32,000 nucleotides of DNA from Moraxella nasovis (GCF_022701215.1 NZ_CP089976.1:1410001-1442000); one strand, 5' to 3'. Numbered from the stretch's first letter, positions 3,306-31,756 are shown. Notes: a model not told the origin generated them from the letters alone. Numbers and translations are program-made.

Positions 3306-3382
3306 AGGCGTATAGCTCAGTTGGTTAGAGCACCACCTTGACATGGTGGGGGTCGATGGTTCGAGTCCGTTTACGCCTACCA
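3306..3382 (+). tRNA. tRNA-Val (anticodon GAC)
   Basis: Hand-folded cloverleaf: acceptor AGGCGTA/TACGCCT, D arm GCTC-AGTTGGTTA-GAGC, anticodon arm CCACC-TTGACAT-GGTGG, T arm with TTCGAGT loop, encoded ACCA 3' end. Confidence 0.93.
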
Positions 3383-16058: not shown

Positions 16059-17201
16059 ATGAAAAATTTACTTCCTAAAACTTGGCAATTTGATACCAAA
16101 AACATAACGACAGACACGAATGAAAAGTGGCTTATACCGCCCATCGTAGATCTGTGTGCACGCCTAAATAAGTTTGGTGATGGCACATCATTTACCCATG
16201 AATGTCAGACAGCGATTAAAAATGGCATTTTGCACGTGTGCACACCGCCTGATGATGGTGCGGTGCGAGAGTCTAGCTCACTGCTTAAAGAGGTTCGTGA
16301 AAAAGCTGCCAATCATGGACTAAATTTACATATGTTAGGGGCACTAACCCAAGGTCTAAAAGGCGAAAAGCTTGCTAACATCGCTGACATTAAGGCAGGC
16401 GGGGCAATTGGTGTTAGCAATGCCCGCTTTGCTTTTGCAAATGACGAAGTATTGTTAAGAGCATTAGAATATGCTAAAGCCTTTGATATTAAGGTGTTCT
16501 TCTACCCAGATGAGCCAAGTTTATCAAAAGGAGTGGCACATGATGGTTACATCGCAAGCTATCATGGATTGGCAGGTATTCCTTGGCTTGCTGAGACCGT
16601 CGCACTTGCTAAGCAAATTTTGATGGTAGAAGAGACGGGAATTTGTGCTCATTTTAGCCAGCTGACTTGCCGAACTTCTGTGGATTTGGTGCGGTTTGGC
16701 AAGGCTAGGGGCTTACCGATTACCTGTGATGTTGCCATGCACCAGCTGTTTTTAACTGATGATGATATTGAAGGCTATAACGCCAACGCCCATGTGTATC
16801 CGCCACTTCGCTCTAATACCGACCAAAGGGCTTTGCGACAGGGCTTGGCAGATGGAACGATTGACGCTATCTGTAGCCATCATGAACCATTATCAAGCAC
16901 AGATAAGCTAATGCCATTTGCTGAGAGTGTGGCAGGCATTAGTAACTTTGATACTTTTGTATCGCTTGCTTGTCAGCTTGTGGCAGATGGCGTTTTGACC
17001 GATACACAGCTTGTGGAAAAAATCTGCCTAAATCCTGCTAACATTGCAGGAATTACTGATTATGAGCAGATTGGTGGAGCGGTGCTTATCGACCCAAATC
17101 AAGCGTGGCAAGTTACCAAGCAGTCTATATTATCTAAGGGTAAGAACACGCCATTTTTAGGTGATGAATTATTTGGTAAGGTTGTACAGACTTTTTTTTA
17201 A
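16059..17201 (+). CDS. Dihydroorotase-like, probably non-catalytic ATCase partner (PyrC'-type)
   Basis: Amidohydrolase/DHOase-like fold directly downstream of pyrB. The position of the zinc-binding D-x-H-x-H motif reads VDLCARL, so both His are absent. This fits the inactive PyrC' subunits of Pseudomonas-type class A ATCases. Confidence 0.75.
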   Translation: MKNLLPKTWQFDTKNITTDTNEKWLIPPIVDLCARLNKFGDGTSFTHECQTAIKNGILHVCTPPDDGAVRESSSLLKEVREKAANHGLNLHMLGALTQGLKGEKLANIADIKAGGAIGVSNARFAFANDEVLLRALEYAKAFDIKVFFYPDEPSLSKGVAHDGYIASYHGLAGIPWLAETVALAKQILMVEETGICAHFSQLTCRTSVDLVRFGKARGLPITCDVAMHQLFLTDDDIEGYNANAHVYPPLRSNTDQRALRQGLADGTIDAICSHHEPLSSTDKLMPFAESVAGISNFDTFVSLACQLVADGVLTDTQLVEKICLNPANIAGITDYEQIGGAVLIDPNQAWQVTKQSILSKGKNTPFLGDELFGKVVQTFF

Positions 17202-18937: not shown

Positions 18938-19375
18938 ATGCCAAAACCAAAAGCACAATCTACCCCAAAACCCATCAAGCCTATCCGCCAAAAACTGTGG
19001 ATCACTTGGATTGTATGGATTATTTGTCGGCTACTCGTGCTGCCGATTATTGTGGGTATGCCTTATGTAAAGGTCATCATGGCAGGTATGGCTTGGCAAT
19101 TAGTCGTCTTATTGCCAGTGTTACTACTTAGTGGCATCGTCATGCGTGGCAAGTCGCCATATCCGCTGATTTTTATAAGTATGCTGACGCTGATTTATTT
19201 GGGGAATGCAGGCTTAGATATGCTGACTAAGATTTACGCTTACGCACCGCTAGGAGTGCAAGCGTTTTTTGTGGTAGAATTTGTATTATTATTGATGATT
19301 AATGCATGGCTATTTATTCTTCTAAGAAGATTGCCACCCATGCATCAAGCTAATAGACAATTAACAGATAACTAA
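18938..19375 (+). CDS. Small integral membrane protein (about 4 TM; possibly DUF2069-like)
   Basis: Basic N-terminus followed by four hydrophobic segments. The family assignment is from memory of the DUF2069 pattern only. Confidence 0.45.
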   Translation: MPKPKAQSTPKPIKPIRQKLWITWIVWIICRLLVLPIIVGMPYVKVIMAGMAWQLVVLLPVLLLSGIVMRGKSPYPLIFISMLTLIYLGNAGLDMLTKIYAYAPLGVQAFFVVEFVLLLMINAWLFILLRRLPPMHQANRQLTDN

Positions 19376-27104: not shown

Positions 27105-27938
27105 TTATTGCAAGCCAAGTAGTTTTTTTGCCCATGTGATAACAGGCATATCCACCATCTGACCATCAACGGCAAAGACCACTTGCCCTGTTTTAAGGTA
27201 AGTATCGTACACCTTTTTGGCAAAATCAAGCTGTTTTGGATTGATTGCTAAGTCCTTGATGGCAGTTACTTGCCTTGGGTGAATGAGTAGCTGACCGCCA
27301 AAGCCAAACGCCCAAGCATGACGACTAAACTTTATAAAGCCCGCTTCATCATGAAAATTAGGATAGATGGTTTCTATTGGAGCGTGTAGGTTATTAGCGG
27401 CAGAATGTAAGATAAGATCGCAACGAATCTTATCCATCATAACTTGTCCAGCACAAGTGCCAAAGCTTATGTCAAGTGAATTTAGCAAATCCAGGCAGCC
27501 ATAGCTTAACGCAAAAACCCCCTGTACGCCAGCAATCTTGGATAGGTTTAGGATGCCTGTCGCAGATTCAATCATCGCAATGATGGGCTTGTCGGTCTGT
27601 TTGGCGAGCTGTGCTACCATGTCGGCGTTCTTTACCTTTGGTAAGATAACGCCAAACAGTGGTAGCTTATTTAGCAGGGTGATGTCTTTAGCAAATGACA
27701 AATCATCTGCATGGTTTGGTGCATTAATGCGTAGATAAATGCTAGAAAAACTATCCCAATCCCAGTTATCTAAGAACGCCAAAAGTTTTTTGCGAGTATC
27801 GTCTTTTATGTCATGACTGACCGCATCTTCTAGATCGATGATTATTGCATCAGCACCACTGCCTGCAGCCTTAGTCATGCGATCTAAGTGCGTGGCAGGC
27901 ACGAATAAATAACTTTGATGGGGGTTAAATTTCATCAT
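27105..27938 (-). CDS. HpcH/HpaI aldolase / citrate lyase beta subunit (CitE)-like acyl-CoA lyase family protein
   Basis: LFVPATHLDRMTKAAGSGADAIIIDLEDAV, ILPKVKNADMV, AMIESATGILN, GFGGQLLIHPRQV and DGQMVDMPV match CitE-family signatures. The start is at ATG 27936-27938 (or 27933-27935), 4 nt after the lspA stop. The ORF-track start 27965 would overlap lspA. Confidence 0.8.
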   Translation of the reverse strand: MMKFNPHQSYLFVPATHLDRMTKAAGSGADAIIIDLEDAVSHDIKDDTRKKLLAFLDNWDWDSFSSIYLRINAPNHADDLSFAKDITLLNKLPLFGVILPKVKNADMVAQLAKQTDKPIIAMIESATGILNLSKIAGVQGVFALSYGCLDLLNSLDISFGTCAGQVMMDKIRCDLILHSAANNLHAPIETIYPNFHDEAGFIKFSRHAWAFGFGGQLLIHPRQVTAIKDLAINPKQLDFAKKVYDTYLKTGQVVFAVDGQMVDMPVITWAKKLLGLQ

Positions 27939-27942
27939 GGCT

Positions 27943-28461
27943 TTACGGCTTTCGCTTGTTCTCAAAAAACAGCATATCTATTAGCACAAGCCCCATGCCG
28001 CCCATGATTGCCATGTCTGCTATATTAAATATCGGATAATGCCACACATCTGCATAATGAACATGAATAAAATCAATCACATAGCCATGTATGAATCGAT
28101 CAACCATATTGCCAATCGCGCCGCCAAGAACTAAGGCTAATCCAAGCGATAGCCATGTGGCGACTTTTGGGACTTTACGCAGATAGATGATAATAAAGAT
28201 GGAGACAATTACACTTAGTCCTGCAAAAAAATATTTCTGCCAACCGCCTTGATCAGCTAGAAAGCTAAATGCCGCTCCATAATTATAAGCCAGCGTCCAG
28301 TTTAGTATGGGGCTAATGACGCTCACTGTCTCACCAAGCTCAAAGCTGTGATTAAAAAAATACTTGGTTAGCTGATCGATGACAAAGACCACAGCAGCAA
28401 GCACATAGTAGCTTACTGCTCGGTTGCCATTTAGTGTTAGACTTGGTGTAACATTAGGCAT
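27943..28461 (-). CDS. lspA: Lipoprotein signal peptidase II
   Basis: Motifs [19 protein letters not shown] and FNIADMAI. I place the start at ATG 28459-28461 (MPNVTPSL...), which overlaps the ileS stop by 8 nt (ATGCCTAA). The longer ORF-track start lies inside ileS. Confidence 0.9.
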
Positions 28462-31400
28462 AATAACGCAATTCCCCATCACCAAAGGCATTCGTAGCAC
28501 AGCGGGTGCAAATGTCGCTGTGTTCGCTATCTGTCCCAACGGTGTCCGTGATGTGCCAGCAGCGTACGCACTTACTGCCGTCAGCAGGCGTGATACTGAT
28601 GGCTGCTTTACCTTGGGCTAGGCTTACGCCACTGGTGATGAATACAAATTTTGCTTCATCGCCAAGCTTAGCTAGGGCGTTAAAGGTATCGCCATCAGCA
28701 TGAATGGTGGCATGTGCGGTAAGATTGCTGGTGACAATGCCATCAGAGCGTGCGTCTTCTATTGCTTTATTGACTAGGTCTTTTACCGCCAAAATCGCTT
28801 GCCAATCGCTTTCGGTAACATCAGTTAAGGCAGGTGCTGGAATGTCATACCAGTTTTGGGTAAAAATGTACTCTTGATCAGCGTCATTATCACGAATGAA
28901 TTCCCACATTTCTTGGGCGGTAAATGGCAAAATTGGAGCAATCCAACGCACTAGGGCTTGGGCGATATGGTAAAGAGCAGTCTGTGCAGAACGGCGTGCT
29001 TTACCATCAGATCGAGTGGTGTAAGTGCGGTCTTTGATGATGTCAAGATAAAACCCGCCCAAAGACTGTGAGCAAAACATACCAATCGCCTGTACGACTT
29101 GGTGAAATTCCATCTCATCATAAGCGGCGATGATGGTATTTTGGGTGTCTTTGGCTTGTTTTAGGATAAACTTATCAAGGCTGACCAGCTCGTCAAAGGC
29201 AATGCTGTCAGTTGCAGGGTTAAAGTCGCTCGTATTTGCTAATAAGAAACGCACTGTATTACGGATACGGCGGTAGCTATCAACCGCCCCTTTAAATACT
29301 TTCTCGCCAGCACTCATCTCATAGCGATAATCAGCAGAAGCAATCCATAAGCGGAGCATATCCGCTCCTGTTTTATCGATTTCACGCTGTGGCTCGATGA
29401 TGTTACCGAGCGACTTACTCATCTTGCGACCTTTTTCGTCCACCACAAAGCCATGCGTTAAGACTTGCTTAAATGGAGCTCTGCCATGAATAGCTTCGCT
29501 TGTAAGTAGTGATGTCTGAAACCAGCCACGATGCTGATCGCTACCTTCTAGATATAGATCAGCAGGGCTTTGCAGATCGTTGTTTTGTTCTAATACAGCA
29601 AAATGCGTCGTCCCTGAGTCAAACCACACATCAAGCGTGTCGGTCACCTTATGGTAGTTGGCAGCTTCTTCACCTAAGAAATCTTCGGCAGTGGCTTCAA
29701 ACCATGCTTCAACCCCGCCTTTTTCAATCATGCACGCGGCTTTTTCGATGAGTTCGCTTGTGCGTGGGTGTAGTTCATGAGTGTCTTTATGGGTGAAAAA
29801 TGCGATTGGCACACCCCATGTACGCTGACGACTAATACACCAGTCTGGTCTGTCGCAAACCATCGCTTCAATGCGGTTTTGTCCCCAAGCGGGCGTCCAT
29901 TTAACATTTTTAATGTCGTCTAGGGCGTTTTGGCGAAGTCCTAATTTTTCCATGCTGATAAACCACTGTGGCGTGGCACGAAAGATAATTGGTGTCTTAT
30001 GTCGCCAGCAGTGCGGATAGCTGTGAGTGATTTTGGTGTGATTGAGTAGGTGTCCGCTCTGTGCCAGCGTTTCAATGATTTTTGGCTGTGCCTTATAAAT
30101 ATGCTCACCGACAAAGACTTTCGCCTCGTCCAGATACACGCCATTACCACCAACGGGATTTTCGGTCGGTAGATTGTTGGCACGCCCCACGTTATAATCG
30201 TCCACACCGTGTGCAGGGGCGGTATGCACAAGCCCTGTACCGCTGTCGGCGGTAACGTGGTCGCCTGTGATGATTGGTACTTGACGTTCGTTAATAAGTG
30301 GGTGCTGGGCTTTTAGGGTGCTTAAATCGCTCCCCTTAACAGTCGCCAAAATTTCTACATTTTGCAAACCGATATTTTTGGCAAAATCATCCACCAAGTC
30401 ATGAGCCACGATAAAACTTGCCGTTTGAGCGATTGGCATAGGATTATCAATCGTATAATGCCACTTTTTGCCATGTTCATTTTCTACGTCTTTTTGATAC
30501 ACGCCACCGATGTTTTGTACGGCTTTTTTGGAGCGTTCGTTACCTTGATGAATTTGAAAACGCACCGTGTTGCGGTGTTTAAAGGCGTAATTAAGCAGGG
30601 CTTGTTTGATTTCGCCATTTGCCCCTGTTCCCCAAAATGCAGGCGTGATAAAGGTAAAGCCAATGCCAACGGTGCTTGTGGCAGGATTGTCATCATAAAA
30701 ACGGGTCGTGCCGACAATCTCGCCTGTGGCTTTATGGATAATGGCAAAAGCTTTTTCTTTCACCGCTTTATCAAAAAACGGCTCAAACACTTCTGGCAAA
30801 TGGCGTTTTTCTGGCATTAGCTCCCAAATGGTAGGGTCTTTGGCTTTGTTAAATAACGCTTCTTTGTCGGCTTTGCTTAGGGTTTTTAATAAAAAGTTGT
30901 CGCTTTCAAGTTCGCTTGGCATGGCAAATGGGGCGACTTTTTCGCCTTTGATAACCGCATAATCAAAGTCGGCATGGGCGGTAATTGCTTGGTTGGCAGG
31001 CAGTGTCCAAGGGGTCGTTGTCCAAATCACCGCTTGCACGTTGCCATCAATATCTTTTAGGGCGGGCAAAGCATCTTTATTGACAATGTCAAAGCCCACA
31101 TAAATGGCGTCAGAGGCTTTATCTTGGTATTCTACTTCCGCTTCGGCAAGAGCAGAGCCACAGTCTAAGCACCAGTTGACAGGCTTTAGCCCACGCACGA
31201 TATGACCGTTGTCATAAATTTTGCCTAAGGCTCGCACGATGTTCGCTTCTTGGGAAAAATTCATGGTAAGATACGGATTATCCCAATCGCTAAGCACCCC
31301 CAAGCGTTTAAAATCAGCCATTTGCAGTTCAACTTGGCTTTTTGCGTAGTCACGGCATAGGCGGCGAAATTCGGTCGCATCAACTTTTTGACCGACTTTA

Positions 31401-31756
31401 CCTACTTTTTGTTCAACCTTTTGTTCAATCGGCAGTCCGTGACAGTCCCATCCTGGTACAAATACAGCATCAAATCCAGATAGGTTCTTAGATTTAGTGA
31501 TGATGTCTTTTAGTACCTTATTAACGGCATGACCTAAATGAATCTGACCGTTGGCATACGGCGGGCCGTCGTGTAGGATATATTTTGGCAGGCCTTTTTT
31601 GGCGGTGCGTACTTTGTCATAAAGACGGTCTTTTTCCCAAGCGTCAAGCCATTTTGGTTCACGTTTGGCAAGGTCAGCTCGCATGGGAAAAGGCGTGTCG
31701 GCAAGGTTTAAGGTGGCTTTATAATCTGTTTGTGGGGTGTTTTTTTGGTCGGTCAT
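28454..31756 (-). CDS. ileS: Isoleucine--tRNA ligase (type 1) carrying an in-frame GNAT-domain insertion of about 170 aa in CP1
   Basis: HIGH motif (HLGH, aa 73-76), [38 protein letters not shown], and a C-terminal Zn motif CVRCWH...CTRC. It is one uninterrupted 1100-aa ORF. Confidence 0.95.
30446..30904 (-). other. GNAT (Acetyltransf_3/RimL-like) N-acetyltransferase domain embedded in IleRS (aa ~285-437)
   Basis: [15 protein letters not shown]...[20 protein letters not shown]...[30 protein letters not shown] (motif A, nt 30581-30637)...[21 protein letters not shown] (motif B). It is flanked by IleRS CP1 residues on both sides. Confidence 0.8.

Follow-up and report, generated by a model that had tools for sequence, protein, structure and literature searches.

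An acetyltransferase domain nested in the editing domain of Moraxella isoleucyl-tRNA synthetase: structure, mosaic distribution and candidate functions

What is an acetyltransferase doing inside the editing domain of an essential aminoacyl-tRNA synthetase (aaRS)? The question is raised by ileS, the gene for isoleucyl-tRNA synthetase (IleRS), in a 32,000-nucleotide stretch of Moraxella nasovis DNA (GCF_022701215.1, NZ_CP089976.1:1410001-1442000), referred to below as the window, with positions counted from its first nucleotide. An initial annotation, made from the sequence alone, had read about 170 extra residues of the encoded protein as a complete RimL/Acetyltransf_3-type GNAT N-acetyltransferase, inserted in frame into CP1, the editing domain of the enzyme. 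Profile searches, structure prediction and comparison with orthologues leave us nearly certain that the insert is a complete PacT/PA3270-like acetyltransferase of the RimJ/RimL type (Acetyltransf_3), nested in a type-1 IleRS. Its intact motifs, the selection acting upon it and its movement between species are described first, and these observations are then used to weigh what the domain may acetylate.

The nested GNAT domain and its host enzyme

The window protein is encoded by a single unbroken reading frame of 1100 amino acids on the minus strand (28454-31756), as had been claimed; the open reading frame (ORF) and the NCBIfam model NF040702 together identify it as a type-1 IleRS with a nested GNAT, and all features of ileS given below lie on the same strand. 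For the borders of the insert, the window protein was aligned with 13 other long and 9 short IleRS from the Moraxellaceae, the short forms being from Moraxella and Psychrobacter. A single clean gap resulted, which defines a 172-residue segment (aa 274-445; 30422-30937) without counterpart in the insert-less orthologues, and the related Moraxella and Psychrobacter enzymes lack the insert at exactly the same point. At this turn the insert-less enzymes read ...IVKSEK-GHFIVAK..., and the window protein reads ...VIKGEK(172 aa)ASFIVAH.... Alignment to IleRS1 of Priestia megaterium (8c9e) stops at D258 and restarts at residue 258, and alignment to the Staphylococcus aureus enzyme (1ffy) stops at E259/K260 and restarts at residue 260; because both alignments break and resume at the same residue, the GNAT domain can be placed at a beta-hairpin turn of CP1, in line with the surface hairpin named in the initial annotation. 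The hairpin strand preceding the insert covers aa 264-273 (30938-30967; strand 265-273 in a full-length model), and the strand and helix that follow it cover aa 446-458 (30383-30421; strand 445-451 in the same model). Two linkers join the domain to these strands: an N-side linker of aa 274-287 (30896-30937), with a predicted local distance difference test score (pLDDT) of ~73 in the full-length model, below that of the domain cores, and the C-side linker NPMPIAQT (aa 438-445; 30422-30445), with a pLDDT of ~78.

When the insert was excised and compared with Pfam, it matched Acetyltransf_3 (PF13302) over profile positions 3-136 of 138 (E=6.5e-17; 62.9 bits against a gathering threshold of 25.4) and Acetyltransf_1 with E=1.2e-7. 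AlphaFold2 modelling of aa 268-452 from a 56-sequence alignment gave a pLDDT of 95.9 and a predicted template-modelling score (pTM) of 0.90, with the structural elements in the canonical GNAT order of beta1-alpha1-alpha2-beta2-4-alpha3-beta5-alpha4-beta6-7. Based on this secondary structure and on Foldseek, the fold core from beta1 to beta7 was placed at aa 288-437 (30446-30895). Foldseek searches of the PDB returned only GNATs at probability 1.0, in dozens of structures; the top superpositions, with template-modelling (TM) scores of 0.76-0.77, were TTHA1799 (2z0z/2z10/2zxv), PA3270/PacT (1yre) and a Brucella GNAT (3tcv). On these grounds the earlier reading of the insert as a complete RimL/Acetyltransf_3 GNAT holds. 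RimL itself ranked 49th (TM 0.71), and MccE was outside the best 50. When a profile of the family was searched against the PDB, the PacT/PA3270 group was the best match by far, over its full length (E=1.5e-23 to 2.9e-20), followed by TTHA1799 and then by PA3944 and uncharacterised GNATs; MccE, RimL, TacT, AtaT and ItaT were not among the matches of this profile at E<=1. The closest solved relative is therefore PacT/PA3270 (PDB 1YRE and 8GXJ, with homologues 8GXF and 8GXK), which superposes on the insert with TM 0.72-0.76 and shares with it two sites of contact with acetyl-coenzyme A (AcCoA), the WG.G.N...K loop and N.RS, at an identity of only ~23-35%. Unlike the IleRS domain, PacT is free-standing and is paired with an AraC/Xre-type protein, PacA; the GNAT described here is nested, its gene has lspA and a citE-like lyase gene as neighbours, and there is no antitoxin gene.

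Three rival readings would make the nested domain an artefact: a chimeric assembly, an element of the intein type excised from the finished protein, or a wrongly called ORF. The in-frame junctions are identical in at least 17 independent assemblies, complete genomes included, and the full-length architecture has been curated by NCBI. No Hint domain was found, the insert matching GNAT families only in Pfam and NCBIfam, and its flanks pair as a beta-hairpin both in the model of aa 268-452 and in that of the full-length protein. A chimeric assembly, for which the initial annotation had asked for a check, is excluded by the 17 or more loci, by the many protein clusters and by purifying selection; chimera and intein were rejected on cross-genome conservation and on the absence of a Hint domain. 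The chance that the insert is an artefact of any of these kinds is negligible.

The host enzyme is otherwise a complete IleRS. The window protein scored 918.4 bits against TIGR00392 (ileS; cutoff 621.4), and Pfam recognised tRNA-synt_1, Anticodon_1 and zf-FPG_IleRS, with Acetyltransf_3 and Acetyltransf_1 in the middle of the protein. The initial annotation had listed the IleRS landmarks, editing-site motifs included, as all present, and each was found in its place. The HIGH-type signature HLGH (aa 73-76; 31529-31540) is invariant among aligned orthologues. In the editing domain, the Thr-rich peptide of aa 245-255 (30992-31024), with the motif WTTTPW, is intact and invariant in 62 aligned IleRS with or without the insert, and the second editing-site motif (aa 505-521; 30194-30244) is likewise intact, with S505, G506, T507, G508, H511, D520 and Y521 invariant. 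A further landmark motif was found at aa 581-592, the KMSKS signature was located by a motif position check at aa 778-782 (29411-29425), and the C-terminal CxxC...CxxC zinc finger recognised by zf-FPG_IleRS occupies aa 1063-1086 (28499-28570). Orthologue alignments showed identical editing and synthetic-site motifs in long and short enzymes alike, and a comparison of long with short IleRS identified no backbone residue outside the junctions that co-varies with presence of the insert. As far as can be judged from the sequences, the GNAT domain is plugged as a module into an IleRS that is in all else canonical.

For conservation within the family, 56 members were aligned, 13 of them fused and 43 free-standing. 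W311, G349, N380, K384, N406 and S409 are invariant in all 56, and P315, R318, F324, F328, R352, G366, F369, W375, G376, R408 and G417 are conserved in at least 90%. All of the residues that define the subfamily are present in 13 of 13 fused copies, with the exception of G366, which is replaced in one. The acetyl-CoA pyrophosphate-binding loop (aa 375-384; 30605-30634) contains W375, G376, N380 and K384, which are 98-100% conserved, and at the start of helix alpha4 the motif N406-E-R408-S409 (30530-30541) combines the invariant N406 and S409 with an R408 conserved to 98-100%. The loop and the NERS motif of the insert align with the AcCoA-contacting PacT residues G108, G110, N140 and R142; the assignments of an acetyl-CoA loop and of motif B (NxRS) made in the initial annotation are correct. 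On the acceptor side, the alpha1-alpha2 segment (30785-30826) holds W311, P315, R318 and F324, which occur throughout the subfamily, together with K317 and P321, which are invariants of the fused copies only. The fusion-specific invariant basic residues of this side are K295, K298, K317 and R395; they could serve a phosphate-bearing ligand or the docking of the domain to CP1. With a median of +0.5, the insert is close to neutral in net charge, whereas a domain that binds tRNA on its own would be expected to have a basic surface.

Two comparisons were made with MccE. The W-x12-F spacing of W311 and F324, and their distance to beta2, are those of MccE W453 and F466, which we take to be the adenine-sandwiching aromatic pair of that enzyme; hhalign left the region unaligned, and any equivalence of the two pairs is hypothetical. 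By sequence motif, S409 occupies the position of RimL S141, MccE S553 and PA3944 S148, and hhalign pairs the NERS of the insert with the NKKS of MccE, in each case an N-x-x-S eight residues before the G-F/G turn (N406-E-R-S409...G417). A role for the catalytic-motif Ser has been described in the homologues RimL, MccE and PA3944 (PMC8072286). The same study, by structure-based alignment, places an Ala at this position in PA3270 (PMC8072286), which is at odds with the conserved N-L-R-S of PacT-family sequences that we find aligned with the N-x-x-S of RimL and MccE. Because of this conflict, the assignment of S409 as the catalytic Ser is insecure.

Distribution, selection and recombination

The architecture proved to be catalogued already. 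NCBIfam holds a dedicated 1100-position 'exception' model, NF040702 ('ileS_w_GNAT'), named 'isoleucine--tRNA ligase, N-acetyltransferase domain-containing', which the window protein matched with 2071.6 bits (cutoff 1999), its residues 11-1100 aligning with model positions 1-1100 of 1100; the two share the same architecture from end to end. The window protein is also 100% identical to a deposited Moraxella nasovis entry, and in RefSeq and UniRef the name of the model is carried by orthologues from M. catarrhalis and several other Moraxella, in many protein clusters. The initial annotation had presented the architecture as novel, while allowing that an existing catalogue entry would remove the novelty; with such an entry in place, that claim falls. 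NF040702 is a naming device without functional evidence, and full-text searching of ~8 million papers and preprints identified no study of the IleRS-GNAT fusion and none behind the model, so that the function is uncharacterised in the literature searched. What is new here is the invariance of the cofactor and catalytic-motif residues together with purifying selection, the single clade formed by the inserts, and their recombinational movement. The proteins of M. nasovis and M. nasibovis are named by NCBI only as 'GNAT family N-acetyltransferase', not as isoleucine--tRNA ligase; a syntenic ileS has been labelled as an acetyltransferase because of its nested domain, which is an annotation hazard.

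A genome scan for the nested architecture returned at least 17 independent loci, including complete genomes, and added M. lacunata CCUG 4441T, M. cuniculi, M. nonliquefaciens, the M. osloensis/Enhydrobacter group, Moraxella sp. ATCC 23246, Moraxella sp. Pampa and several metagenome-assembled genomes. The scan used one peptide pattern taken from a 15-sequence alignment, and the resulting list of species has gaps, since even M. nasovis and M. nasibovis were missed. The insert is lacking in IleRS from M. haemolytica, M. caviae, M. porci, M. (Faucicola) boevrei, Moraxella sp. Tifton1 and Psychrobacter, and M. lacunata has both forms, a second genome of this species being without the insert. In M. 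catarrhalis the insert was present in 29 of 29 alleles examined, which are 98-100% identical to one another. The many database clusters had suggested that ileS might be hyper-diverse in M. catarrhalis, and this idea was rejected on the same allele identities. When the insert was searched against 1.84 billion representative proteins, the one long protein among the best 150 matches was M. catarrhalis IleRS, at 66% identity; the rest were free-standing or two-domain GNATs at 33-45%, except for one 76-aa fragment at 67%, and the best full-length free-standing match was a 'RimJ/RimL family' protein of 181 aa from Paucimonas lemoignei. Within the reach of this search, then, the Moraxella group alone has the fusion. 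An ileS-GNAT gene was also seen on BMPS01000005.1 (L013), a 134-kb contig labelled Streptomyces cinereus JCM 3040; its N-terminus and length are those of the M. osloensis/Enhydrobacter form, and the contig is likely to be contamination or mislabelled.

Ratios of nonsynonymous to synonymous substitution (dN/dS; Nei-Gojobori, codon-based) were determined over 14 pairs and came to 0.11-0.31 for the insert and 0.06-0.25 for the remaining gene. Protein identity to the window protein is 44-68% in the insert and 63-80% in the backbone. The insert thus evolves faster than the backbone, yet is clearly constrained. Its G+C content is below that of the backbone in six of six species, and very markedly so in some, such as Moraxella sp. 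Pampa (32.9% against 47.4%). In the window the difference is slight (43.3% against 47.3%), and the statement in the initial annotation that the insert resembles the rest of the gene in base composition requires correction to that extent.

These data bear on whether the insert is no more than a tolerated passenger, an irrelevant or decaying domain in a permissive hairpin that hitch-hikes with an essential gene. The faster evolution and the lower G+C content would fit such a passenger, as would the permissive position at the hairpin tip, the likeness in all other respects of enzymes with and without the insert, and its loss or absence in many relatives. Against it, the dN/dS ratios of the insert were obtained across large divergences, the cofactor-loop and catalytic-motif residues are kept in all 13 divergent fused copies bar the one replacement of G366, and frameshifted or truncated copies were found at none of 17 loci. 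The presence of the insert in every M. catarrhalis allele examined and the confident folding of the domain in its model point the same way, and we regard a mere passenger as quite improbable.

In a neighbour-joining tree, the 13 fused inserts formed one clade in 121 of 200 bootstraps, and in 180 of 200 when the deepest branch (P0088) was removed, and the insertion point is identical in all of them. One clade with one insertion point makes a single ancestral insertion in Moraxella the simplest history. With regard to a mobile donor, searches gave no plasmid match above 40% identity and only one weak phage match.

The tree of the insert is in conflict with the backbone. The M. nasovis backbone is nearest to those of M. 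nasibovis (80%) and VT-16-12 (79%), and its insert is nearest to those of M. lacunata (68%) and M. catarrhalis (64%); the insert of P0060 is 81% identical to that of M. nasibovis, with a backbone at 70%. Sliding-window nucleotide identity between M. catarrhalis CCUG 353 and M. nonliquefaciens CCUG 348 is 95-99% over codons ~100-700 and 51-83% beyond the edges of this tract. Between M. catarrhalis and Moraxella sp. ATCC 23246, ~800 bp centred on the insert are 95-96% identical, against 73-78% in adjacent windows, and between M. catarrhalis and M. lacunata the insert is ~87-91% identical in surroundings of ~75%. The insert-bearing and insert-less M. lacunata alleles can be compared directly: 3' of the insert they are 91-99% identical (two windows 84-85%) and 5' of it 79-87%, with the breakpoint at the insert. 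The insert-bearing segment of ileS has moved between species by homologous recombination, and the GNAT module comes and goes as accessory traits do, by way of homology in the flanking parts of an essential gene. Moraxella are naturally transformable. The patchy distribution, the tree conflict, the mosaic tracts and the low G+C content of the insert together lead us to treat it as an accessory, horizontally spreading trait.

What the domain may acetylate

Since the residues that define the subfamily are kept, the AcCoA contacts of PacT are aligned and the dN/dS ratios remain low, the domain is probably a competent enzyme, and from its sequence we infer an active acetyl-CoA-dependent N-acetyltransferase. 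Its acceptor was approached through the relatives of the insert. No partner gene is conserved beside the two closest free-standing relatives; one follows a HigB/HigA-like pair that is unrelated to it, and the other is flanked by ptsP/HAD/DUF4124 and pta-ackA. Two further free-standing relatives stand in housekeeping contexts. No conserved partner, aaRS or antitoxin was seen around any of these four (L018, L020, P0121, P0122), which is evidence against a toxin-antitoxin origin. In two-domain relatives, the GNAT is joined to a GyrI-like, DinB, Macro, cupin/AraC-binding, GATase or SIS domain or to a second GNAT, and GyrI-like, DinB and cupin/AraC-binding partners are typical of proteins of small-molecule binding and detoxification. 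Because the free-standing relatives are solitary, the fusion partners bind ligands and the insert is near neutral in charge, we lean towards a small molecule as the acceptor.

By analogy with known systems, it is quite possible, if still short of an even chance, that the domain acetylates small aminoacyl-type ligands of IleRS as a target-tethered immunity or detoxifying module. Such a domain would acetylate the free alpha-amine of isoleucyl-adenylate mimics, of processed 'Trojan-horse' warheads, or of toxic isoleucine analogues released by editing, and the N-acetylated ligands would then be barred from the synthetic or editing pocket of IleRS. It would be a module tethered to its own target, analogous to the free-standing MccE and RimL, which act on microcin C, and TfxH, which acts on trifolitoxin. 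MccE and RimL acetylate processed microcin C and related aminoacyl-nucleotides (PMC8072286). TfxH acetylates the processed trifolitoxin warhead and thereby protects ArgRS, and GNATs and resistant aaRS copies recur in 'tiarin' clusters whose predicted targets span at least eight aaRS types (bioRxiv 10.64898/2025.12.02.691738). In the Moraxella protein, a GNAT and the enzyme to be protected would be united in a single chain, and with them both strategies. Acetylation of the alpha-amine of an aaRS-inhibitor warhead by a GNAT is thus a recurrent immunity mechanism, in MccE as in TfxH and the tiarins, and protection of an aaRS from an amine-bearing aminoacyl mimic is the working analogy for the mechanism favoured here. 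The C-terminal domain (CTD) of MccE and RimL share with the insert the Acetyltransf_3 family and the Ser of the N-x-x-S catalytic motif. They differ from it in being remote in sequence, and MccE, RimL and TfxH differ also in their targets, which are AspRS and ArgRS inhibitors rather than those of IleRS, and in not being placed inside the target enzyme. MccE-type GNATs are free-standing or fused to the MccE N-terminal domain.

Several points weigh against a detoxifying role. MccE and RimL are not the nearest relatives of the insert: neither was among the PDB matches of the family profile at E<=1, RimL came only 49th in Foldseek, and the hhalign alignment to the MccE CTD covers the C-terminal core only, with a probability of 1.7%. 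The insecure assignment of S409 also counts here. We know of no natural amine-bearing IleRS inhibitor from the Moraxella niche, and mupirocin is without an amine. Detoxification is not obviously in need of fusion to the target, and the mosaic tracts may stem from transformation at large, Moraxella being naturally competent, rather than from selection for the insert. The full-length model is of moderate confidence, with a pTM of only 0.66 (pLDDT 79.2 overall, 79-93 in the GNAT region).

The location of the insert suggests another acceptor. CP1 of IleRS binds the aminoacylated 3' end of the tRNA, and a GNAT inserted in this domain might acetylate, in cis, the aminoacyl alpha-amine on tRNAIle (as Ile-tRNAIle or as Val-tRNAIle from mischarging) during the time that the 3' end spends at or close to CP1. 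Such a GNAT would be a translational brake built into the enzyme, or would open a second disposal route dependent on peptidyl-tRNA hydrolase (Pth). The fusion-specific basic residues K295, K298, K317 and R395 on the acceptor side would suit such a role, and there is a precedent in ItaT, a GNAT reported to be specific for Ile-tRNAIle (PMC7367177). PacT, of the Pseudomonas PacTA system, arrests growth and changes the proteome when overexpressed, binds CoA and Fur, and has been proposed to act on aminoacyl-tRNA (PMC9561280), although this acetylation was deduced from proteomics and CoA binding only. The proven toxins TacT, AtaT and ItaT share the GNAT fold and acetyl-CoA chemistry and take an aaRS product as substrate, but they went undetected by the family profile in the PDB at E<=1, PacT is 23-25% identical to them, and they belong to a different GNAT clade with a cognate ribbon-helix-helix (RHH) antitoxin, of which no gene is present near ileS. 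TacT, AtaT and ItaT act as dimers. The ileS locus has no antitoxin or regulator, its downstream gene being lspA, and the closest free-standing relatives are likewise without partner genes. Constitutive acetylation by the enzyme of what it has itself produced would come at a high cost, a second disposal route looks redundant beside fully intact motifs for hydrolytic editing, and the near-neutral charge of the insert also counts against tRNA as the ligand. Taken together, we consider acetylation of aminoacyl-tRNA unlikely, attractive as the location in CP1 makes it; the corresponding picture of a new proofreading or throttling step, in which a domesticated, antitoxin-free ItaT-like reaction yields a product recycled by Pth, is held to be unlikely in the same degree.

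A protein could also be the acceptor. The domain might acetylate a Lys or the N-terminus of IleRS or a partner protein, or it might serve as an acetyl-CoA sensor that alters CP1 dynamics; in either case it would couple the supply of Ile-tRNA to carbon and acetyl-CoA status. The RimJ/RimL family, in which Pfam and the source annotations place the relatives, includes N-alpha-acetyltransferases of ribosomal proteins, several bacterial aaRS are regulated by lysine acetylation, and conservation within the insert is highest at the residues that bind acetyl-CoA. No backbone residue, such as a target lysine, co-varies with the insert, however, and insert-less sister species and strains manage without the domain. 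W311, R318, F324 and F328 are common to hundreds of free-standing relatives in unrelated bacteria, and acceptor-side residues shared with unrelated free-standing GNATs argue for a common small acceptor rather than one specific to IleRS. Protein acetylation or sensing therefore appears distinctly unlikely, and acetylation of a small aminoacyl-type ligand is retained, tentatively, as the favoured function.

A housekeeping aaRS fused to an unrelated small-molecule enzyme has been described in Mycoplasma penetrans, where MetRS is reported to be joined to an aminotransferase (PMC7694997). In that case the fusion is terminal and supplies an amino-acid substrate, whereas the IleRS fusion is nested in the editing domain and the added enzyme is an acetyltransferase.

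Genomic surroundings and biological meaning

Directly downstream of ileS, on the same strand, lies lspA for signal peptidase II (27943-28539; NCBIfam PRK14785/TIGR00077), which overlaps the ileS stop. As called mechanically from TTG 28539, the lspA ORF overlaps the 3' end of ileS by 86 nt, and its profile match begins at residue 29; an in-frame ATG at 28461 would reduce the overlap with the ileS stop to 8 nt, as in the insert-less locus L022. From the sequence, ATG 28461 is probably the real start of lspA, which would imply translational coupling of ileS and lspA. The order in the window is ileS, lspA, a citE-like lyase gene and fkpB. The ileS-lspA arrangement is common to the insert-less L022, the insert-bearing L028 and the window; in L021, also insert-less, three small ORFs stand between ileS and lspA. 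The deepest-branching fused gene, P0088 from a metagenome, has the classical ribF-...-ileS-lspA-fkpB arrangement. Since insert-less orthologues occupy the same position, ileS in the window is, as judged at this locus only, most probably the housekeeping locus. The citE/HpcH-HpaI-type C-C lyase gene (27105-27965) stands between lspA and fkpB, the FKBP isomerase gene. In L028 lspA adjoins fkpB, and in L021 and L022 the same type of lyase is found elsewhere near ileS; the surroundings of ileS have been rearranged locally within Moraxella.

A 152-aa ORF initiated by TTG (30362-30820, plus strand) runs antisense to the GNAT-coding segment and was taken as spurious, because conserved coding sequence on the other strand contains it entirely. 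The remainder of the window, from 1 to 27000, is ordinary housekeeping DNA, with tatD, a thiF-like gene, efp and a radical-SAM gene, a TonB-dependent receptor gene, xerC-dapF-lysA, ackA-pta, yaaA, pyrB, a BrkB-family gene, groEL, rplS, uvrC and a tRNA-Val(GAC) gene (3306-3382). Two ORFs, at 16059-17201 (380 aa) and 18938-19375 (145 aa), had no Pfam match.

Immediately upstream of ileS-GNAT, and in the same orientation, a cassette of three genes was seen in M. catarrhalis CCUG 353 (L005, 2116-5121), M. nonliquefaciens CCUG 348 and Moraxella sp. ATCC 23246. Its genes code for a peptide beta-hydroxylase of the aKG-HExxH type (TIGR04267, 88 bits), a protein of the CMD family and an MFS efflux pump, and its ~2.8-3 kb are 99-100% identical among the three species, in surrounding DNA that is diverged or non-syntenic. 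The possibility that this stretch was rRNA was rejected when Rfam found nothing. Just upstream of the cassette, a 32-codon ORF beginning 'MTESIDYKNTLNLADTAF...' resembles a leftover 5' end of ileS, which suggests that the cassette arrived by recombination at ileS. Neither the window nor any other insert-bearing locus compared has the cassette, and so it is not obligatorily linked to the GNAT domain.

Because the architecture is already catalogued, the value of this locus lies in its function and not in its discovery. Intact active-site motifs, purifying selection, a single origin with recombinational spread and presence in all 29 M. catarrhalis alleles make the domain a worthwhile and tractable target. 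The system should also be easily tested: the natural insert-less alleles give an exact design for a deletion, and a single domain with few conserved residues, such as N406 and S409, has to be addressed. If the domain is active, this IleRS would be the only aaRS found in our searches with an acetyltransferase built into its editing domain, and if aminoacyl-tRNA were the acceptor, it would add a new layer of aminoacyl-tRNA quality control. M. catarrhalis is a major cause of otitis media and of exacerbations in chronic obstructive pulmonary disease; it carries the insert in every ileS allele examined. Should the detoxifying function be true, Moraxella would carry a drug- or analogue-inactivating module on the drug target itself, relevant to IleRS-directed antibiotics and to the expanding class of Trojan-horse aaRS inhibitors, and this module would appear to pass from one species to another as a mosaic allele, much as resistance carried by transformation does.

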